Below, one piece after another: positions 32,024 to 42,608 of a stretch of 64,000 nucleotides of DNA. The translations under genes were made by a program, and so were the position numbers. How positions within the stretch are numbered: the stretch's first letter is position 1; each line of letters opens with the position of its first letter. This DNA comes from an uncultured bacterium. Its GTDB lineage: Bacteria > Oederibacteriota > Oederibacteriia > Oederibacteriales > Oederibacteriaceae. Below the pieces are notes generated by a model that was given only the letters and a program-made list of their open reading frames with translations, searched no databases and had not been told where the DNA came from. Location of the stretch: assembly GCA_965112635.1 (NCBI GenBank), contig OZ218778.1, positions 1,120,001 through 1,184,000 on the forward strand, written 5' to 3'.

Positions 32024-32070
32024 TTATGGGTTATGTTTTTAGAATAATTTTTAGAAAGGGAGGCTGGAGC

Positions 32071-34494
32071 ATGGTAAGAAAGTTTTCGCTAGGTTTAATT
32101 GGAAAAGGCATTCTTTTTACGCTATTTCTAGGTATTGCTCTGGAGGGGAAGGTCTCCCGGATATACGCTCAAGATGCAGGCTCTTATCTGCTTAAAGTCT
32201 CGGCGATCGACCTTATAAAATCAGAAGAACCAAAAACCCAGCAGTGGTCTCCTGTCCAGTCGTTGGATGGGAAAAAGGTTGTGAAAGTGTTAGCTGGGAA
32301 TAGGGGCGTTTTTTTGCTGCCTGCCTGGTGGGGAGATTCTCCCAGACCCAATGAAGGCGAACTGTACACCATGGAGATCGATTACAGGGATGATGTTTCC
32401 AAGCTGGTGGTGGTTTCCTGTTTTGGCAATAACGCTGCAAACAACTATCTTAGGGAGGTTCATCGGATCGGCGGAGAGGGTACGGGACAGTGGAAAACGG
32501 CCTATATCCCATTGTCCTGGGATTATCTCTATGCTGGTCCCGGTATGGCGGTAAGCCAAGGCCAGCAACAGATCGGCCTAGAAGTAGCCGGGAAAGACAA
32601 AGACCTGCCTATTGCGGAAGTGCGCGTACGAAGAGCTGCTTTACCAGGCGATGCCGTGCGCTATGGTCAAGAGACCCGTACGTGGGTCCGTAAGTTGCAA
32701 TCCCGCCATCCGGCCACCAGGATCGTCACGGTTGTTCCGCAAACCGTAGATCTGCCCGATGAATATAAAAGCAAGCCTTTAGTTCCTTTTGCCCAGACTT
32801 ACTTGAAGCTGATCTTTAACACAGATGTTCCCGCTAAGCAATCGGTGGGAGTGCCTGTGCAAGTCCGCATGGCCTTGAATCAGCAATCAGCGGTACAGTT
32901 CGGAGTTTACGCCAATGGCATAAACTTGAATAATGTGACTTACTCCTTGGGGGCCTTGAAAGACAGTGACGGCAATCCTCTAAAGTCTAAAGCAAAGCTT
33001 TATGCTGCCGAATATGACCTAGTCCAGGCAGACAATAATATGCTGCAATGGTATCCCCACCGTCTTTGGCCGTCTTTTCCCCTCACTATCAAGTCAGGAC
33101 AATCCCAGTGTTTCTGGATGACTTTGGAAACAAGAGCGGATACGACCAAGGCGGGGAGTTATAAGGGTGAGATCACCATTGTGGCTGAACAAGCGACGGA
33201 TTTGCAGAAGATAACTGAGAAAATACCTATCGAGGTGGATGTCCTGCCTATCAAGCTGTTGACCATGGAAGAGGCCGGGTTGACCATGGGTGGTTGCGTA
33301 TATGGTTTAACCACGTTCGGCGATATATCTTACGCTGCCAAAAATAATAACAATAGTGTGGACTTGTGGTGCTTTTCTTCCAGGCCAGCCATGTCCATCA
33401 GCGACGGCAAATTGGCCATTGATTTCACTCTGTTGGACGAATGGATGAAAGAAGCGAAGCGCCGGGGATGGCAAAAAGTGATGTATTTTATGGGAGAAGA
33501 TCCCCTTGGGTTTCCCCTGTTCATGGGCCTGGAAAAAGCTCTTTATGTCGCCCTTAGAACCGGTGCAAGAAAAACGATCACACCGCAGGAACACGACTCT
33601 TATATTGACGAGTATTGCCGGCTGGCCGGCGCCAAAGATTCGCGGGGCAAAGTGATCGATGAGATCAGACCTTATTTTATCCAGTGGGTCAAACAGATGA
33701 CCGAACATGGAAAGGCCAACGATTGGCCTGACCTTATCCTTACCCCCTTTGATGAGCCTGCCAAATATGTATGGGCTGGGAAAAAAGATGAGGTCAAGAG
33801 CGATCCGCGGGTGATCGGCTCGGGGATGTGGACCAAGGACCACTTCGAAGATTCGTGCAACTTGATCCGCGAGAACATGGCTCCCGGCACCTTGATCAGC
33901 GGGGATATCCACCACGCCTTTGGCACTATTTTCCTGCCAGACCTGGATATCTTCTGCACCAATGCCTGTGATGAGGATGTTTCTCTGGGCGATTCGGTCA
34001 GGGACGCAGAAAAAATACTCTGGCAATATTCGGGCGCAGGAGGTTCTCCTTTCGTTATCAGGATGTATTATGGGTTCCATTTCGCCAATTTTGACTCCCG
34101 GGGTTCTTTAGCCTGGGCCTATAACTGGAGCAACGCCAATTGGTTCGACCTTTCAGAAGGGGATAACTCCACGGTCGAGTGGCCTACGCCCATCGGCACG
34201 ATCGTCGACCCCTCTTATGAAGCTATCCGTGAAGGGCTGGATGACCGGCGCTATATCGAGACCCTGCGCGCCCTGGCTAAAGCCAAAGGGGTCTCCCCGG
34301 ATGTGGAAGCTTTTTTGAAAACTGTTTTTGATGATGCGGTGCGGACCCATAATGCCACGCCCCAAGACCGCAATCCACAGGCAATCATAGCCGACCCGGT
34401 GAAGCCTGAAACCTGGCCGGACGACAAAGAAGCGGTGCTGGATAAATGGCGTGGACAGATCGCGGATAAAATTGTGGAATTAATGGCTCGATAA
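32071..34494 (+). CDS. Secreted GH123/DUF4091-like glycoside hydrolase-related protein
   Basis: Signal peptide; 'SQCFWMTL..AGSYKGEI' Ig-like segment; 'PFDEP'; C-terminal 'YEAIREGLDDRRYIETL'. Confidence 0.5.
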   Translation: MVRKFSLGLIGKGILFTLFLGIALEGKVSRIYAQDAGSYLLKVSAIDLIKSEEPKTQQWSPVQSLDGKKVVKVLAGNRGVFLLPAWWGDSPRPNEGELYTMEIDYRDDVSKLVVVSCFGNNAANNYLREVHRIGGEGTGQWKTAYIPLSWDYLYAGPGMAVSQGQQQIGLEVAGKDKDLPIAEVRVRRAALPGDAVRYGQETRTWVRKLQSRHPATRIVTVVPQTVDLPDEYKSKPLVPFAQTYLKLIFNTDVPAKQSVGVPVQVRMALNQQSAVQFGVYANGINLNNVTYSLGALKDSDGNPLKSKAKLYAAEYDLVQADNNMLQWYPHRLWPSFPLTIKSGQSQCFWMTLETRADTTKAGSYKGEITIVAEQATDLQKITEKIPIEVDVLPIKLLTMEEAGLTMGGCVYGLTTFGDISYAAKNNNNSVDLWCFSSRPAMSISDGKLAIDFTLLDEWMKEAKRRGWQKVMYFMGEDPLGFPLFMGLEKALYVALRTGARKTITPQEHDSYIDEYCRLAGAKDSRGKVIDEIRPYFIQWVKQMTEHGKANDWPDLILTPFDEPAKYVWAGKKDEVKSDPRVIGSGMWTKDHFEDSCNLIRENMAPGTLISGDIHHAFGTIFLPDLDIFCTNACDEDVSLGDSVRDAEKILWQYSGAGGSPFVIRMYYGFHFANFDSRGSLAWAYNWSNANWFDLSEGDNSTVEWPTPIGTIVDPSYEAIREGLDDRRYIETLRALAKAKGVSPDVEAFLKTVFDDAVRTHNATPQDRNPQAIIADPVKPETWPDDKEAVLDKWRGQIADKIVELMAR

Positions 34495-34661: not shown

Positions 34662-37600
34662 TCATTGTTTAGCAGCAGCCTCTTCGTGGTCCACTTCCCT
34701 CAAGGCCGGCCTGCCTAGCACTTTGCGCGTCCAGACGCGGAACCGGTCGACCCAGCTGAACATGGAGGGGATGACGATCAAGGTCAGGAGCGTGGAACTG
34801 ACCAGGCCCCCGATGACCGCAATACCCATGGACTGACGGAAGCGGCTGACCTCGGACAGGGCCATGGCCAGCGGGGTCATGCCGGCGATCAGGGCAAAAG
34901 TGGTCATAAGGATGGGGCGCAGACGGATCTTGCCGGCTTCAATGATGGCGTCATCCCTGGACCTTCCCCGGCGCATGAGCTGGTAGGTATAATCCACGAG
35001 CAGGATGGAGTTTTTCGCCACCAGGCCCATGAGCATAATCAGGGCGATCATGGACATGATGCTTAGAACCTGGCCGGTGAAAAGCAGGGCGCCGAAAGCA
35101 CCCAGCCCGGCCAGCGGTAGGGCGGTCATGATCAAGAGCGGCATGATGATAGATTCATACAGCGTGGCGAGGATTAAATACATAAAGATGAGGCCCAACA
35201 CCATGGCGATGACCATGTTGACGACCAGTTCCTGGAAGTCCTCGGCTTGCCCGATGAAGTCATACGTGATCCCGGCAGGGATCTTGCCTTCCTTTTCAAG
35301 CCCCTTCATGATCTTCCTGGCATCGTCCTCGATATTCCCCAGGGCCCCCAAACCGCCAAGCTGTCCGCCAACCTGGATGTAGCGGATCCGGTCGCGACGG
35401 TCGATCCGGGTGGGGCCCAGCGTGTTCTTGGGCGTGGCGACATTGGCCAGGCGCACCAGCTGATTGTTCATATTAGGGATGTAGTACGAACCGTAGGCCT
35501 GGGAGAGGTCGCGCTGGTCCTCCTGCAGGCGGACGCGGATATCATATTCCAGGCCGTTCTCCCTGAATTTGGCTGGCACGATGCCGTCCACCATGCCGCG
35601 GAGCTCAGAGCCAGCCATGACCGTGGAAACGCCCAAGCTTTTGATCCTGTCCGGCTCCATGATGATCTGGAATTCCGGCTTACCGGTCTTGTAACTGATG
35701 TCCAGGTCCTTCAGATCCCTGATGCTCTTAAAAGATTCTCCGGCCATTTTGGCGACCTGGTCCATTTTTTCCAGGTCATCCCCCATCACGATCATGGTAA
35801 AAGGAGGTCTGTTGTCACCGCCCATCTGCACATTGCCCACCTGGGGGCTGAAATTTGCGAAGACCTTGAACTCATCCCTGAGAACTTCCTGCATATGGGT
35901 CGTAGTCATTTTAGGACGGAGCCTGTAATTGGTCATCTCCACGAAAATGCTGGCCACATTGGTTTCTCCCTCATCGTTGCCCACCTGCAAGGCCACATTG
36001 AGGTTCTCCGGATGGGACCGGATGACTGATTCGACCTTCTTGGAAGTGGCCAGCATAGCTTCCAGGGAGGTGCCCGGAGGGCCCTCCAGGCTGATCAAAT
36101 AAAAACCCACGTCCGGTTGGGTCATAAAAGTGCGCGGGAGCAAAATGAAAAAGATGACACCAATTACAAGGAACACAACGGTGCTGAGGAGGACCACCCA
36201 GCGGTGACGCAGGCAAAAACGCATGACCCGTTCATAAAAATCAACGAGCCAGGTTTGAAAGTGGCCGAAATAATAGGCCAGGGTGTGCAATGGCCAGAAA
36301 ATATAATAGAAGGTCTTCTTGATGGCGTTCCAGACCACCCGCCCAAAGCCAGGGGTTGTATTGTCCTGCCCGGACAGTTTATCTTTTTCGGCGGAGCTGC
36401 TCCTGGCCAGGTAGGCGGACAACATGGGAGCCACGGTCATGGCGTCAAAGAGGGAGATGGCCATGGTGAATACCACGGTGAATCCCATCTGCTTGAAAAA
36501 CTGGCCGATGGTGCCGTGCAAAAAACCGATGGGCATAAAAACAGAGATGACGGTGAGCGTGGTGGCCACCACGGCCATAGTGACCTCGTTGGTCCCGTGG
36601 ATGGCCGCGTCCTTGGGTGATTCGCCGTGCTCCAGGTGCCTCCAGATATTTTCACGGACCACGATAGCGTCGTCAATGAGCAAACCCACGGCCAGGGACA
36701 GGGACATCAGGGTGATCATGTTGATGGTAAAGCCCATCATATACATCAGGATGAAGGAGCCGATCAGGCTGTCGGGCAGGGCCATGCCCGTGATGAAGGT
36801 GGAGCGGAAGTTGCCCAAAAAGAGGTAGACGACAAAGACCGTGAGCAAGATGCCCAGGAGAATGGTGTTGCGCATATCCTCGATATCTATCTTGATGAAC
36901 TTGGCGTTATCCAGGGTCGTATTGAGCTGGGGCTTGCCTTTGGCTGACGAGAATTTATTGTTTATCTCCCTTATTTTGTTCTGCACAGCGTCGGCCACCT
37001 GTACCGTGTTGCTTCCCGACTGGCGGTAGATGTCCATGAAAAGGGATTTCTCGCCGTTATAAAAAGCCAGGTTCTTGGTGTCCTCGACCGTATCTTCCAC
37101 CGAGCCCACGTCCTGGAGGGTGACCGGGATATCGGAGCCGTAAAAGTTCACGACGGTCTTCCTGATCTTGTCCAGAGCATCGTATTCCCCGAGGGTCCGG
37201 AACGCCGTGCGCTTGTCCTTCCTGGATATCTCGCCTACCGGGATGTTCTGGCTGTTGGCCGCCAGGCGGTCGCTCACCATGCTCACGGACAGCTCGTGGG
37301 ATTTGAGGCGGTCCTTGTCCAGGGACACCTTGATCTCACGGCGCGTACCGCCCAGTATCTGCACCAGCGCCACATTCGGAACCTGTTCCAGCAGGGGTTT
37401 GATGGTTTCGTGGGCCAGGTCGTAGATCTGGGCCGGGGTCAGGTCCGCGGACAGGGAGACGCGGACGATGGGCTGGTCCGCGGGGTCGAAACGGCGGATG
37501 ACGGGCTCGTCTATTTCATTGGGCATGTTGGGCCGGGCCAGGGTGACCTTCTCGCGGACCTGCTGCTCGGCGTCCTTGACGTCGGTGCCGAGATAAAATT

Positions 37601-37880
37601 CGGCGAGCACCATGGAATAGCCGTCATGGTTCTCGGAGGTCAGGTGCTTGAGACCCGAAATAGCGCTGATCTGCTCTTCCAGAGGCTTGGAGACCAGGGT
37701 CTCTATTTCATGGGGTCCGGCGCCGCGGTAGGTGGTGACTACCGAGATCATGGGAAAGGATACATCGGGGAATTGGTCCACGCCGATGCGGAAATAGCAC
37801 AGGCTTCCCACCACCAGGATCAAAGCCACAAAGCTCATAATCAGGGTGGGTCTTCTGACCGAAAGTGCTGCTAGGTTCAT
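34662..37880 (-). CDS. RND efflux permease (AcrB/AcrD/AcrF family)
   Basis: 1072 aa; 'GLLIDDAIVVRENI', 'KNSILLVD', 'RLRPILMTT'. Confidence 0.95.
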   Translation of the reverse strand: MNLAALSVRRPTLIMSFVALILVVGSLCYFRIGVDQFPDVSFPMISVVTTYRGAGPHEIETLVSKPLEEQISAISGLKHLTSENHDGYSMVLAEFYLGTDVKDAEQQVREKVTLARPNMPNEIDEPVIRRFDPADQPIVRVSLSADLTPAQIYDLAHETIKPLLEQVPNVALVQILGGTRREIKVSLDKDRLKSHELSVSMVSDRLAANSQNIPVGEISRKDKRTAFRTLGEYDALDKIRKTVVNFYGSDIPVTLQDVGSVEDTVEDTKNLAFYNGEKSLFMDIYRQSGSNTVQVADAVQNKIREINNKFSSAKGKPQLNTTLDNAKFIKIDIEDMRNTILLGILLTVFVVYLFLGNFRSTFITGMALPDSLIGSFILMYMMGFTINMITLMSLSLAVGLLIDDAIVVRENIWRHLEHGESPKDAAIHGTNEVTMAVVATTLTVISVFMPIGFLHGTIGQFFKQMGFTVVFTMAISLFDAMTVAPMLSAYLARSSSAEKDKLSGQDNTTPGFGRVVWNAIKKTFYYIFWPLHTLAYYFGHFQTWLVDFYERVMRFCLRHRWVVLLSTVVFLVIGVIFFILLPRTFMTQPDVGFYLISLEGPPGTSLEAMLATSKKVESVIRSHPENLNVALQVGNDEGETNVASIFVEMTNYRLRPKMTTTHMQEVLRDEFKVFANFSPQVGNVQMGGDNRPPFTMIVMGDDLEKMDQVAKMAGESFKSIRDLKDLDISYKTGKPEFQIIMEPDRIKSLGVSTVMAGSELRGMVDGIVPAKFRENGLEYDIRVRLQEDQRDLSQAYGSYYIPNMNNQLVRLANVATPKNTLGPTRIDRRDRIRYIQVGGQLGGLGALGNIEDDARKIMKGLEKEGKIPAGITYDFIGQAEDFQELVVNMVIAMVLGLIFMYLILATLYESIIMPLLIMTALPLAGLGAFGALLFTGQVLSIMSMIALIMLMGLVAKNSILLVDYTYQLMRRGRSRDDAIIEAGKIRLRPILMTTFALIAGMTPLAMALSEVSRFRQSMGIAVIGGLVSSTLLTLIVIPSMFSWVDRFRVWTRKVLGRPALREVDHEEAAAKQ

Positions 37881-37892
37881 TATTAACCTTTC

Positions 37893-39977
37893 CTAATTTG
37901 CGTTGTAAAGCTTGGCCTGGGCCAGGATGGACAGTTTTTCCACCCCCAGCCTCAGGGTGTTCAATTGGGCTTGGTCAAAGTCGTCCTCGAAAGATAACAA
38001 CTGGAATGTCGTGGTCCGGCCGTTGTTAAAGCGTTCCGTCTCGTTCTTCAGTTTTTCCTCCTGGAGGTCCTGGATCTCCTTAGCCAGGGACAGGCGGGTG
38101 TTCACGTCCTCCCAGCTTTTCAAAAGGTTCCGCCAGTCCTGGGATTCGTTGAGTTTGGCGCTGTCCAGGTTGCGCTGGGCGGCCGCGTAGTCCGAATCAT
38201 AGCCCTGCTGGATCTGGTTCAGGGTGAAAAAATCCAGGGGCGCAATAAAGGTCAGGCCCACCGTGTAGGTAGGCTGGCCACCGCTCAACGAGGTGTCGTA
38301 GGCGGCCAGGGCGCCGTAGTCGTGGCCGTTGTAAACCACGGTGCCGAAGGCGTTGAGGTCGGGCAGGGATTTGTAGAACGTCTCTGTGACCTCGTACCGG
38401 GCGCTTTGCATCATCAGGCCGGAGGCCTGGACGTCCAACCGGTCATTCTGTTTTTTGATCTCGGCGTTCTGGAAAGAGGGGTCGCTCAAACGGTGGTTCA
38501 GGTCCTCCAGGTTTTCCGGCACCTCGTCGCCGCTCCGGCCCCGGAAGGTGTTGAAATTGCGCTGCTGGGTGAGCAGGTCCTGCTGGGCCATTTTAAGGTT
38601 CAGCTCCTTGAGCTTGTAGGCCGCCTGCGTCTGATAAAGGTCGGAGCGGTCCGCCAGGTTGAGGTTGACGCGCCTTTGGCTCCATTCCAAAAGTTTGGCC
38701 GTGCGGGAAAGGGATTCCTGGTCGTAGGCCACCACGGCGCGGGCCAGGGAAAGCTGCCAGTAGGCCATTTCAGCCTGGGATTTCAAAGTTTCCGCCCGCA
38801 GGTGTTCGGCCTTTTCCGCTGCGTTGGCCTGGGCTTTGGTCTTGCTGACGGTGGACCCGGTCAGGCCGCACATGAAATCGCGGAGCAGGGACTGGGACAC
38901 CGTCAAACTGGGTGCCACGTCGTAGTACGGTATGGAGGGGACCAGGCTGTCCAAAAGGCTGGGTGGAAACCCCGGTATGCCGGTCAAGGAAGGGAACATG
39001 AGGTTCGTGTAGTTCAGCCCGTAGTTCAGAGAGATCGTGGTCCCGGTGAACCATTTTTTGGAAAGCCCCAAGTTCCAAGAATAGGCCTGTGTCTCGCTGG
39101 GGCTTAACAGGGAGGTGGGCTGCTTTTTGTCGTCCACCGCCGTATAGTTTGCGTTAAACAGAGGAGAAAATTCCATATCCACTTCCTTGGCTTTGAGGGT
39201 GTAGCCTTTTTGGGTCTGGCTGGAGGCCTGGAGGGCTGGATTGTTGTCCTGCACCTGGGATAAATAATCATCCACGTTAAGCACTGCCTGGGCGCCGGTC
39301 CACACGGGAGCGAACAAGAAGGAAAGACCCAAGAACAAAAGCGGCATGGCTTTTTTACCAGTCTTATAAAGTTTTTTCATGCCTTCCGCAAAGATGGTTG
39401 CGAGCGAATGGACATACTCTTTGTCCGAAAATTCTAGGGAGGGTCCTGTTTTCCACATTTTCTTTTCCGTGGCGTAGCGGATGAGCGAACCTATGAACTG
39501 GTGCAGGAACATGAACTGGGATTTTTTGCCAACTTTATTGTGCAGTAAACGGCCATGACAATGGTTGAAATCCATGTCGTGGGTCTGTTCTTTTGAAATG
39601 GTTAGAAAGATTTTACGCATGAAGGGGTCGGTATAGGCGTTCCTTAACATTAATTGCATAAATTCCTGGCTTTCCTTTTTCTCCATGTCGTTCAAAAAAC
39701 TCATGCCTATCTGGTTAAGCATCTCAAAGGGGCCTTTGGCGATGGGGAAAGCGTTGATCTGTGAATGGATGACCTTGATCCTCCAGCGGACCAGCTCGTG
39801 CAGGACCTGTTCTTTGCTTTTGAAATAGTGGTAGAGGCTGGCCTTTTGCATTTTACAGGCCTGCGCGATAGCGCTCATGCTGGTCTCGCCGTAGCCTTTG
39901 ACCGCGAAAAGGTGCATGGCGATCTTGAAGATACGCTCCCTTTGTTTGTTGTGTATCACTGGGTTAAGGGTTTTCAT
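37893..39977 (-). CDS. In-frame fusion of a TetR-family regulator (aa 1-199), an internal signal peptide (aa 200-231) and a TolC-family outer membrane factor
   Basis: HTH 'FAVKGYGETSMSAIAQACKMQKASLYHYFKSKEQ'; internal 'MKKLYKTGKKAMPLLFLGLSFLFAPVWTGAQA'; OEP-like repeats ('NNPAL', 'AYWQL', 'ERFNNGRTTTFQLL'). Confidence 0.85.
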   Translation of the reverse strand: MKTLNPVIHNKQRERIFKIAMHLFAVKGYGETSMSAIAQACKMQKASLYHYFKSKEQVLHELVRWRIKVIHSQINAFPIAKGPFEMLNQIGMSFLNDMEKKESQEFMQLMLRNAYTDPFMRKIFLTISKEQTHDMDFNHCHGRLLHNKVGKKSQFMFLHQFIGSLIRYATEKKMWKTGPSLEFSDKEYVHSLATIFAEGMKKLYKTGKKAMPLLFLGLSFLFAPVWTGAQAVLNVDDYLSQVQDNNPALQASSQTQKGYTLKAKEVDMEFSPLFNANYTAVDDKKQPTSLLSPSETQAYSWNLGLSKKWFTGTTISLNYGLNYTNLMFPSLTGIPGFPPSLLDSLVPSIPYYDVAPSLTVSQSLLRDFMCGLTGSTVSKTKAQANAAEKAEHLRAETLKSQAEMAYWQLSLARAVVAYDQESLSRTAKLLEWSQRRVNLNLADRSDLYQTQAAYKLKELNLKMAQQDLLTQQRNFNTFRGRSGDEVPENLEDLNHRLSDPSFQNAEIKKQNDRLDVQASGLMMQSARYEVTETFYKSLPDLNAFGTVVYNGHDYGALAAYDTSLSGGQPTYTVGLTFIAPLDFFTLNQIQQGYDSDYAAAQRNLDSAKLNESQDWRNLLKSWEDVNTRLSLAKEIQDLQEEKLKNETERFNNGRTTTFQLLSFEDDFDQAQLNTLRLGVEKLSILAQAKLYNAN

Positions 39978-39982
39978 GGTCT

Positions 39983-40015
39983 AATTAACCTACCGCTTGG
40001 TAGGTTAATTGTCAA
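39983..40015 (-). promoter_or_regulatory. Sigma70 promoter overlapped by a 12-bp palindromic operator (probable TetR site)
   Basis: Minus strand TTGACA-17 nt-TAGGTT; AATTAACCTACC-gctt-GGTAGGTTAATT perfect inverted repeat at 39983-40010. Confidence 0.8.
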
Positions 40016-40063
40016 GGTTAGTGTTTCATTAAACTACCGGGGGGTAGGGCAATGGCAAAGCGG

Positions 40064-41311
40064 TCATTTTAACCTATGGAGTATCTCTCCGGCGTGGTCC
40101 ACGACTAATTTATCCTTATCCTCACCATTTCTCCATTCAGAAAGAATAATATGGGCGGGATTTTTATAGCCGAGGTTGATCTTGTGGCAGCGTTCTGGCG
40201 GGATAGCGGTGGCCAGGGTCACTTTGATACGGGGTTTTTCTATCCCGTTATCAAAAGTGCCGACCCCGCGGACATGGGTGGAATGGGCCATGACCGAGCG
40301 GGAGACGCCTTTAAATCTGTTCTTTTGCATGAGGAAATAGTCCCGCACATGGTAACCGATCTTATCCAAAGTTTTACCATGGGTATAGGAGACCTCGGTG
40401 ATGTGCGGGGCATAGATGATGAGCTCGCCGCCGTCCGCGACGATAGGCTCAAGCTTATACATGACCTTGCCGGCTGTCCAAATATCATCGTACATCTTGG
40501 GGGCGATCCCCAAGACCTGGCGGTACTGGCGCCGCAAATAGACCATGTGCAGTTTGGAGGAGAGGTTGGCGGCTTTGGGCCAAGCTTCCCCATGCGAACC
40601 CGTGAAAAGGCCTTTGACCTGACCGTCTTTGATAACACTGCAGAGGAATAAGCAGGGTTTTTTGATGAAAGAAGCGGATTTGTTGATGACCCGGCGGACC
40701 GGCGTGTTTTTCCTGCCAATGATACCCATGTTGGTGATAACCGCGCCCAGCCAATGGAAAAAGTTCAGCACTTCCGGCCCTGCTACGCCCGGGAAAAAAT
40801 ACTTATTACCTCCTGAAAAACCTGCTACCTCGTGCGGGAAAACCGGGCCGTAAACAATAAGGTGATCGTATTCCAGCACTCTTTTGTTGATGGAAACTTT
40901 TACTTTTTCTTTGAAAAGACCGTTGGATAGTTTGTATATCTCATTGGCTGAAATAGTGCCGATAGTCTTGAGGTTCCTGGGGTTGTTCCAGCAGTGATTG
41001 AATATCCGACTTTTAGGGAATTCTTTCCGGCGCTGGGCAATGGACATCTGGAGATGCTCGGATATTTTGGATTCAGGCATGGGAGGGTGAGTGCCCAGGG
41101 CCAGCATGAAGTCCACTTGTTTGGCTTTTTTGGTCAGCAGTTCTGCCAGAGTTTTGTAAAAAAAGTGTGTCGGTCCGGAGCGAGAGTGATCTGGCAGGAT
41201 GACCAGGACGCGTTTGCCGGCCAAAGGCACGTGGTCTATGGCCTGGCAGCAAACTTTCCGGATTTCATTCTTTGAAAGGAATCTCTTCCCGGCTTTCTTG
41301 CCAAAGTACAT
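40064..41311 (-). CDS. Lactate racemase (LarA) superfamily hydroxy-acid racemase/epimerase
   Basis: 'PDHSRS', 'ALGTH', 'FPHEVAGFSGGNKYFFPG', 'WTAGK'; ATG 41311 just downstream of the pfk-like gene. Confidence 0.8.
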   Translation of the reverse strand: MYFGKKAGKRFLSKNEIRKVCCQAIDHVPLAGKRVLVILPDHSRSGPTHFFYKTLAELLTKKAKQVDFMLALGTHPPMPESKISEHLQMSIAQRRKEFPKSRIFNHCWNNPRNLKTIGTISANEIYKLSNGLFKEKVKVSINKRVLEYDHLIVYGPVFPHEVAGFSGGNKYFFPGVAGPEVLNFFHWLGAVITNMGIIGRKNTPVRRVINKSASFIKKPCLFLCSVIKDGQVKGLFTGSHGEAWPKAANLSSKLHMVYLRRQYRQVLGIAPKMYDDIWTAGKVMYKLEPIVADGGELIIYAPHITEVSYTHGKTLDKIGYHVRDYFLMQKNRFKGVSRSVMAHSTHVRGVGTFDNGIEKPRIKVTLATAIPPERCHKINLGYKNPAHIILSEWRNGEDKDKLVVDHAGEILHRLK

Positions 41312-41318
41312 AATGACT

Positions 41319-42608
41319 CTACTTCCTATGTGCCTGTGGAACATAAGGTTTGCATTTTTTATCGGCAAAAATTGGTTTAAACCGGGTGAATCTCTGCAAA
41401 CCGTTCTCAAGAGGTATCTGCGCCCAGTCGTTGCCGATAAGCGGACGGGCGTACTGGATAAAGTCGTCGGTCACATCGAACTTGTTCTTGGTCAGCCATT
41501 TTTCCGGGAATTTCCGTTCAGAATTGGCGACTTTTTCAAGAGAGACTTTGTCATAGGTCACCGCGTATTGGTTGCCGGGCTTGCGCAGGATGGTGGACAT
41601 GTAGCCATTGCCGTCCTTGACGGCGATTTCCGCGGCTTTTTTACCCAGTTCGTAAGCCTCATCCAGGTCCACATTGGAAGCATAGAGGATAGCATTGCGT
41701 TGGTCTGTGCCAGAAACATTGCCCCGGGCAGCGCCGCGGGCTTTTAGGCCCACCTTGTTCAAATGGTTGACCACCACCTGGCCGACGGTGATCTGGCTAG
41801 CGCTGAATTTCACATGGCCAAAGCTGTCCTTGACCTCGCCTATATCGCCTACGGGAAATCCTTCGCTCACCACCACGATCACCCGGCCTCTTTTGACCAG
41901 TTCGGCGTTAACATTGTCGGTGAGCTGGTCGAGGTTCAAGCCGGACTCCACGAGATAAATCTGCAGGGGCATTTCATGGTTGGGGTCAGCGAGACGCGCC
42001 GCAGCCGGGATATAGCCGATCTTCCTGCCCATGGCCTGCACCACCAGGACAGGGTCGTCCGGGCAGGAACCGTTGTTCTCTTCATTGGCGTTCTGGATAT
42101 AGCAGGCCCAATATCTGGCCACGCTGCCGTAACCCGGGGTATGGTCGATGAGTTTGAATTCTGAATCTCCGACATCATTATCAATAGTTTTAGGGCCGCC
42201 GACCGCCACCAAGTCCAGGCCTTTTTGGCGGGCCAGGAGGCTGATCTTGTGGGCTGTGTCCATGGAGTCGTTGCCGCCTATATAAAAGAGGTAGCCGATA
42301 TCGTGCGCTTTAAAAACTTCGATGACGCGGTCAAAATCTTCGGTCTGTTTTTCTTTCAATTTATAGCGGCAGGTGCCGATGGAACCGGCTGCCGGAGTGG
42401 TCCTTAGAAGTTTGATCTCTTTTTCGTCCTGGCTGGAAATGTCTAATAGTTCTTCCCTTAAAATCCCTTCAACGCCGTGAAATCCAGCGTAGATCTTGCC
42501 GAATTTGTCAGGAGATTGCTTGCAGGCGTCGATAATGCCCCGCAGGGTATTGTTGATGACCGCGGAAGGGCCTCCGGATTGGGCGACGATAACATTCTTT
42601 GAAGACAT
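41319..42608 (-). CDS. PfkA-family kinase with PPi-type signature
   Basis: 'AQSGGPSAVIN', GGNDS, PKTIDND, MGR, VSEG; ATG 42608 after GGAGG. Confidence 0.85.
   Translation of the reverse strand: MSSKNVIVAQSGGPSAVINNTLRGIIDACKQSPDKFGKIYAGFHGVEGILREELLDISSQDEKEIKLLRTTPAAGSIGTCRYKLKEKQTEDFDRVIEVFKAHDIGYLFYIGGNDSMDTAHKISLLARQKGLDLVAVGGPKTIDNDVGDSEFKLIDHTPGYGSVARYWACYIQNANEENNGSCPDDPVLVVQAMGRKIGYIPAAARLADPNHEMPLQIYLVESGLNLDQLTDNVNAELVKRGRVIVVVSEGFPVGDIGEVKDSFGHVKFSASQITVGQVVVNHLNKVGLKARGAARGNVSGTDQRNAILYASNVDLDEAYELGKKAAEIAVKDGNGYMSTILRKPGNQYAVTYDKVSLEKVANSERKFPEKWLTKNKFDVTDDFIQYARPLIGNDWAQIPLENGLQRFTRFKPIFADKKCKPYVPQAHRK

Follow-up and report, generated by a model that had tools for sequence, protein, structure and literature searches.

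A TetR repressor and a TolC-family channel encoded in one frame around an internal signal peptide, a probable substrate of signal peptidase

The window analysed here, a stretch of 64,000 nucleotides from an uncultured bacterium of the Oederibacteriota (contig OZ218778.1, positions 1,120,001 to 1,184,000), contains on its minus strand a 694-residue open reading frame (ORF) in which a TetR-family repressor, an internal signal peptide and a TolC-family outer-membrane channel follow one another. An operator-like palindrome lies just upstream of this fused gene, and a gene for an AcrB-type permease of the resistance-nodulation-division (RND) class just downstream (Table 1). The gene is a real repressor-channel ORF. 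Fusions of this kind are real and recurrent and apparently undescribed, and in the window we think it probable that the product is a precursor separated into its two halves by signal peptidase I (SPase I).

An earlier note on this stretch had described a complete TetR, an internal signal sequence and a full TolC in one ORF, and the reading frame, Pfam, AlphaFold2 and Foldseek all agree with that description. One frame without internal stops covers the three parts. TetR_N (PF00440) is matched with 56.3 bits against a cut-off of 24, and the ligand and dimerisation domain is complete, with nine long helices and one short one spanning residues 6–206 in the AlphaFold2 model of the fusion (mean predicted local distance difference test score 92.3, from a 148-row alignment). 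Foldseek aligns this half with MtrR/FadR-type proteins over ~195 columns (E ~1e-4). In the C-terminal part two OEP stretches reach 80.6 bits (cut-off 22), and Foldseek returns CusC, OprM, VceC and TolC with E values of ~1e-15 to 1e-13 and target TM-scores of 0.62–0.75. Between the TetR helices and the TolC fold the model has a lone hydrophobic helix of low confidence (residues 210–221). With TIGR01844 the TolC part scores 56.5 bits, below the curated cut-off of 225.15, and by sequence it belongs to a divergent subfamily. Canonical TolC has four barrel strands per protomer, giving a 12-strand trimer. The monomer model here has six β-strands (residues 273–283, 295–308, 313–327, 351–363, 540–553 and 568–578), which, if the model holds, would yield an 18-strand barrel. 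Six-strand TolC models have been reported for two Brachyspira proteins (10.1101/2025.01.03.631275). The G+C content is 0.467 in the tetR part and 0.574 in the tolC part, in keeping with the earlier remark that tetR is the more AT-rich of the two, and the gap is just 1–7 points at four related loci.

Table 1. Features of the repressor-channel locus, in window coordinates.
Feature	Position	Strand	Basis and remarks
Fused ORF tetR-signal peptide-tolC (P0001)	37893..39977	-	694 aa; Pfam, AlphaFold2
TetR-family repressor, aa 1-199	39381..39977	-	Pfam TetR_N, AlphaFold2 helices, Foldseek MtrR/FadR-type matches, end point of split relatives (G-[ILM]-x-A-stop)
TetR helix-turn-helix (HTH), aa 17-62	39792-39929	-	Pfam TetR_N
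Internal Sec/SPase I-type signal peptide, aa 200-231	39285..39380	-	core ~aa 211-223; predicted cut after AQA (aa 231), i.e. AQA/V
Mature TolC-family outer-membrane factor, aa 232-694	37896..39284	-	Pfam OEP x2; AlphaFold2; Foldseek
Operator-like perfect palindrome	39983..40010	.	12-bp arms, 4-nt spacer, core CCTACC-N4-GGTAGG; ends 5 nt before tetR ATG
Probable promoter	39987..40015	-	TTGACA (40015-40010), 17 nt, weak TAGGTT (39992-39987), 9 nt to ATG; read by eye
AcrB-type RND permease, 1072 aa	34662..37880	-	Pfam ACR_tran 811 bits; 12 nt after fused ORF

The seam between the two halves looks like a signal peptide that is internal, where a TolC protein would have it at the N-terminus. A basic n-region (+4) is followed by a hydrophobic core and by AQA, the predicted cut being placed by the -3,-1 rule for signal peptidase sites (PMC9360617, section 2.4.1). 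On our in-house heuristic the best 12-residue Kyte-Doolittle mean is 2.23, the median being 2.33 in 146 stand-alone TolC relatives, and none of 334 control windows from the remainder of the fused proteins reaches 2.0. Only ~11 residues separate the core from the first TolC helix in the AlphaFold2 model. The seam, which is eight residues longer than those of the fused clade described below, contains two in-frame ATGs, at 39380 (M200) and 39347 (M211). Neither has a well-spaced Shine-Dalgarno (SD) sequence, as had been claimed earlier: when 737 constrained true starts of this strongly SD-using genome are ranked by upstream score, the two ATGs fall at the 1st and 28th percentile. Codons 200–211 score as coding in the fused frame (0.57 vs -0.98 and -1.55 in the other two).

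The same build, TetR_N followed by OEP, is found in six other 90% clusters of the window's TolC subfamily (P0002–P0006 and P0159), and a partial locus at a contig end, L128, reads from TetR into a signal-like stretch. The six fusions, 41–47% identical to that of the window, form one clade with support of 100/99 in the TolC tree (29 of 44 rows, LG+G4). Within it TetR is 47–73% and TolC 65–85% identical, so the fused state has been kept for a long time. The window copy lies outside this clade, which in a tree of concatenated TetR and TolC (19 rows) joins five split loci (98/99). A single origin for the window fusion and the six was rejected by an approximately unbiased test (p=0.0012, LG+G4, with long outgroup branches flagged). 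The window copy probably goes back to a fusion event of its own, or else an old fusion was reversed once or twice. The subfamily further contains a MarR-signal peptide-TolC fusion in two clusters (P0017 and P0163; 4 and 7 members, respectively), which groups in the TolC tree as sister of a marR/tolC pair that is split and is of independent origin; P0017 is encoded exactly by a genome of the window's phylum, and the sources label members of its cluster Ca. Firestonebacteria. A signal peptide resembling those of the 146 stand-alone proteins is kept in seven of seven TetR fusions and both MarR fusions, and the -3,-1 site in all nine.

Possible start codons at the seam are less constant. In L124 the stretch that begins 19 codons ahead of the core and extends to mature TolC has no ATG, GTG or TTG, an SD-less ATG remains four codons before the core at the MarR fusion locus L231 (G044:C269:1-2769), and the three fused subfamily loci with DNA share no start position; GTG and TTG were checked in loci with DNA, a set outside which P0003, P0004, P0006 and P0159 fall. 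A conserved upstream Met in the last TetR helices was considered as a hidden start and turned out to be a TetR residue, present in P0005, P0006, L128 and the split loci L126, L129 and L130 and absent from the other five fusions. Long open frames upstream of tolC in G023, G003 and G032 are off-frame overlaps of upstream genes or give no in-frame TetR or MarR match.

Fusions also occur far from this subfamily. In the ESM Atlas three clusters have the TetR_N+OEP build (170, 98 and 54 members), most often from Elusimicrobiota, Gemmatimonadota and Verrucomicrobiota; a MarR+OEP cluster of at least 50 members is absent. The first cluster was chosen for follow-up in the phylum of genome G099 (Elusimicrobiota). 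Among the matches listed (150 of 240 TetR hits in 201 genomes of this phylum) 13 frames exceeded 400 residues; three were not fusions, and the other ten were TetR_N+OEP fusions in tetR-tolC-adaptor-like-RND operons. A profile built from eight of the fusions found a full-length TetR-TolC fusion in 39 of 401 genomes of the phylum, with 35 rows free of stops and four with one TAA (terminal in the three checked), and 30 were fetched and confirmed. These are 33–91% identical, and relatives with a stop between tetR and tolC occur next to them. The hydrophobic core is kept in all 30 and the -3,-1 site in 28, whereas no ATG, GTG or TTG lies within -15 to +2 codons of the core in 13 of the 30 (1 of 55 unfused tolC genes, which are of the window's subfamily). 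An SD-backed start is found at the seam in 2 of the 30 vs 41 of the 55, and even the alignment column richest in starts has one in just eight of the 30 fusions. No fusion of the window's own TolC subfamily was seen among the 401 genomes. The fused tetR-tolC of L282, L284 and L285 is immediately preceded by another tetR, a free one. The search for further TetR_N+OEP proteins, which the earlier note had recommended, succeeded in the subfamily, in another phylum and in the ESM Atlas: the relatives are not all separate genes, and many of the fused ones lack the internal start from which alone TolC might otherwise have been made.

How did the two genes become one? Split relatives (L126, L129, L130, L131, L132, L008 and L161) have a 4-nt overlap, ATGA or GTGA, between the stop of tetR and the start of tolC. 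The five nearest split TetRs end in G/R-[IL]-x-A-stop, and in L124 and L128 this motif continues directly into the hydrophobic core; in the fused clade the last basic residues of TetR double as the signal n-region. We infer that a small indel put a translationally coupled tetR/tolC pair into one frame. If the export machinery separates the two halves anyway, first the stop and then the TolC start codon would become dispensable, and fusion could therefore recur without need of a new regulatory function. Judging from these sequences, the fusion arose several times in bacteria, in TetR lineages and in a MarR lineage.

The reading that we favour, and hold to be on the whole probable, is of one precursor that SPase I cuts; TolC would then move to the outer membrane, and RseP would probably free the TetR stub. 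Translation would start at the tetR ATG, and TetR would fold in the cytoplasm. The internal signal peptide, an anchor oriented N-in, C-out, would then engage the Sec translocon and thread TolC into the periplasm, where SPase I would cut after AQA; mature TolC would reach the outer membrane via the β-barrel assembly machinery and serve the downstream RND pump. This would leave TetR attached to a stub of the signal peptide, which RseP most likely clips within the membrane, and TetR would dimerise on the palindrome over its own promoter. Genes for BamA, for two SPase I enzymes and for RseP are present in the genome. Loss of the start while the signal is kept, as in the fusions of the other phylum, is what a cleaved precursor predicts, and the 13 fusions without a start at the seam cannot be explained by re-initiation.

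The fate of the TetR stub deserves a closer look. In E. coli, proteins that keep their signal peptide are retained at the inner membrane (PMC9360617), and RseP cleaves remnant signal peptides after Lep has detached them, as shown with N-terminally HA-MBP-tagged versions (PMC10470546). The putative TetR stub resembles such a remnant carrying an N-terminal passenger. Since the window genome has RseP and the E. coli enzyme clears remnants of this kind, release of TetR is the default expectation. A polyprotein split by SPase I, as the earlier note proposed, is still the best reading, owing to the recurrence and the loss of starts elsewhere, although the window copy itself keeps two ATGs. The lasting membrane tether that went with the proposal is unsupported, as the core is no longer and no more hydrophobic than those of cleaved TolC signals and RseP is encoded. 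Synthesis of repressor and channel at 1:1, expected earlier as a gain, would not be new with the fusion, given that close split relatives already overlap by 4 nt. We are doubtful of a further step, in which the TetR and MarR fusions to TolC would form a recurrent class whose repressor is freed only after channel export, the SPase I cut and RseP action, so that repression would report Sec export and signal-peptide clearance. If this were true, export or envelope-proteolysis stress would keep the repressor at the membrane and derepress the pump.

Several points weigh against the cleaved precursor. Cutting in the window is a prediction from sequence features, and signal peptides were scored by our in-house heuristic. 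The window fusion is a singleton, with no other stop-free TetR-TolC fusion in 99 genomes of its phylum, and as it lies outside the six-member clade the evidence from relatives transfers to it by analogy, not descent. The 30 fusions of the other phylum are kin and not independent cases, and they belong to another TolC subfamily than the 55 genes with which they were compared. The full start scores of M200 and M211 beat ~87% of internal ATGs. Pieces from public runs (four of the eight listed) over 37000–41000 are error-free on both sides of the seam and leave 39144–39411 without cover, so that read data neither support nor refute the seam. The high start scores matter most for the possibility that most TolC comes from independent initiation at M200 or M211, the long product being minor or just the source of TetR. 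Both ATGs have been kept, a textbook MKK... signal peptide begins at M200 where the sequence is A-rich and weakly structured, and about a quarter of the true starts in the genome lack a strong SD by the measure used. We nevertheless consider such a nested start rather unlikely: neither ATG has a spaced SD, the ancestral start relied on overlap with a stop that no longer lies in frame, and position 200 aligns with a hydrophobic residue of the TetR end motif (I, L or V in most relatives). TetR would still exist only as the long form and need cutting, and nested initiation is impossible in those 13 of the 30 fusions that have no start.

The fusion could also be a recent lesion, in which a young indel joined two working genes in one lineage and the product is tolerated or defective. 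A singleton with its own, longer seam outside the fused clade is what one would then see, and the relatives, all just of the same phylum, include none near enough for dating. This seems to us quite improbable in view of the intact operator, HTH, TolC and RND gene and of the coding score of codons 200–211; fusions of this sort are evidently workable, being stably maintained in one MarR lineage and in at least two further TetR lineages. An uncut, ToxR-like chain, in which a single anchor links cytoplasmic TetR to a TolC located in the periplasm or outer membrane, would have the layout familiar from membrane-tethered regulators (DNA-binding domain, one hydrophobic span, exported domain). We give it very little credence: the span has the length and hydrophobicity of a signal peptide, and its -3,-1 site is conserved in the subfamily and in the other clade as described. 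The ~11 residues between core and TolC helix would be too short to reach an outer-membrane channel, by the distances in TolC and AcrB structures. TolC, moreover, works as a trimer. TetR regulators act as dimers (PMC8277102), and the two symmetries would be mismatched. We find it scarcely believable that the fusion is an assembly error, in which one of the seam's two A6 runs has slipped by a base and so joins separate genes. Another frame does stop a few codons after M200, the seam is without read cover, and the assembly has some breaks, with 15 frameshift candidates in 1789 genes (test sensitivity 122/300; some may be true pseudogenes or normal overlaps), another outer-membrane factor gene among them. 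At ~one break per 60–90 kb, the prior chance of a break in the 100-nt seam is nonetheless ~0.1–0.2%, runs of at least six occur twice per kb in intact genes, the seam codons score as coding in frame, and 7 of the 12 ingroup loci in the concatenated tree (chosen partly for being fused) are fused. The exact protein is recorded from NCBI, Logan and ENA on two contigs, possibly from one data set. Apparent frameshifts, each an assembly slip or a pseudogene, were noted in another TolC-family gene (G000:C1:306840-308107) and near C1:63393, where a giant ORF of 5588 codons continues for ~3140 more in another frame. The single RNA piece at the locus is uninformative on expression.

The palindrome upstream of the fused gene is unlikely to arise by chance, as 12-bp arms were reached in none of 300 shuffles. 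It overlaps the TTGACA box of the probable promoter, and the same palindrome stands upstream of fused L124, L125 and L128 and of split loci. We read it as the predicted TetR operator over the repressor's own promoter, and its conservation in fused loci suggests that the TetR half is probably still a working repressor. A consensus scan did not call the promoter; a -35-like box of the form TTG-A/C-x is identically placed in almost every one of the 22 loci viewed. With the -10-like box 9 nt before the ATG, the message would be near-leaderless. A shorter operator-like core, TACC-N4-GGTA, lies at 40035–40046, ~25 nt upstream of the main palindrome. Elsewhere in the genome, a single contig of 2.88 Mb whose available relatives are all at phylum level only, CCTACC-N4-GGTAGG recurs perfectly just once, at G000:C1:2828354, ~30 nt upstream of a 258-codon gene (2827548–2828321, minus strand) that is a candidate second TetR target. 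The upstream neighbour of tetR (40064–41410, minus strand) is LarA-like (Lar_N), and no minus-strand terminator was called between the two.

The RND gene has a strong start of its own (78th percentile of true starts). No adaptor (membrane fusion protein, MFP) gene accompanies pump and channel at the fused operon, which is thus not of the tripartite type; three TIGR01730 loci sit elsewhere in the genome, next to other TolC-family genes and apparent ATP-binding cassette or major facilitator superfamily-type transporters. All three RND genes of the genome (window 34662–39977; G000:C1:1377152-1381494 and 2477647-2482142) lie directly 3' of a TolC-family gene with no MFP between, and the fused or split relatives L124, L125, L126, L127 and L129 likewise pass directly from tolC to the RND gene. 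Pumps of the window type are possibly adaptor-less or adaptor-borrowing. The convergent gene downstream (32026–34494, plus strand) has weak GH123 matches, below cut-off.

What would such a gene mean? Signal-peptidase-processed bacterial polyproteins are considered rare. If the cleaved precursor is real, such genes would show in nature that Sec can pick out a signal peptide that lies 200 residues into the chain and follows a folded cytoplasmic domain, and that SPase I, probably together with RseP, can mature a repressor. Operon neighbours might merge without co-localising by a testable route, in which a coupled overlap gives way to a fusion that keeps the start, and this in turn to one that has lost it. 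Such fusions are easily misread in annotation, and at least one is named by its source solely 'outer membrane protein TolC'. The ESM Atlas already lists the architecture, under a cluster name assigned automatically. In the titles and abstract openings of an open-access library we found no description of TetR-TolC or regulator-TolC fusions and no report of a signal-peptidase polyprotein yielding a transcription factor and an outer-membrane protein, and a term look-up in the available parts of PMC8277102, PMC4446572 and PMC9360617 did not find regulator-TolC fusions.

Among known systems, AcrR-acrAB and MtrR-mtrCDE (PMC8277102) share with the window an N-terminal HTH TetR regulator, a palindromic operator over the efflux promoter, a TolC-family channel and an AcrB-type pump. 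Unlike in these, regulator and channel in the window are one ORF, co-directional with the pump, the operon has no adaptor gene, and the channel, for which six strands per protomer are predicted, does not reach the cut-off of TIGR01844. For the polyprotein itself a close parallel is FbcH of Bradyrhizobium japonicum, reportedly a precursor whose parts, cytochromes b and c1, are separated at an internal signal peptide, presumably by signal peptidase. As in the window, one bacterial ORF is said to hold two complete proteins with an internal Sec signal peptide between them. Both FbcH products are reportedly subunits of one membrane complex, the upstream part being already in the membrane, whereas in the window the signal follows a soluble DNA-binding protein, and the outer membrane is the predicted destination of the second product. 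The proposed sequence of cuts recalls the anti-sigma cascades: RsiP of Bacillus thuringiensis is processed by SipP and RasP, signal peptidase followed by site-2 protease (PMC8844934), and RseP acts on RseA and FecR as well as in signal-peptide clearance (PMC10470546). As is proposed for the window, these have a cytoplasmic regulatory domain on one span, cut outside by signal peptidase and then in the membrane. In anti-sigma cascades, however, the first cut is controlled by a signal and the outer part is a sensor, while in the window the cut would probably be constitutive, the outer part a channel and the released part a repressor.

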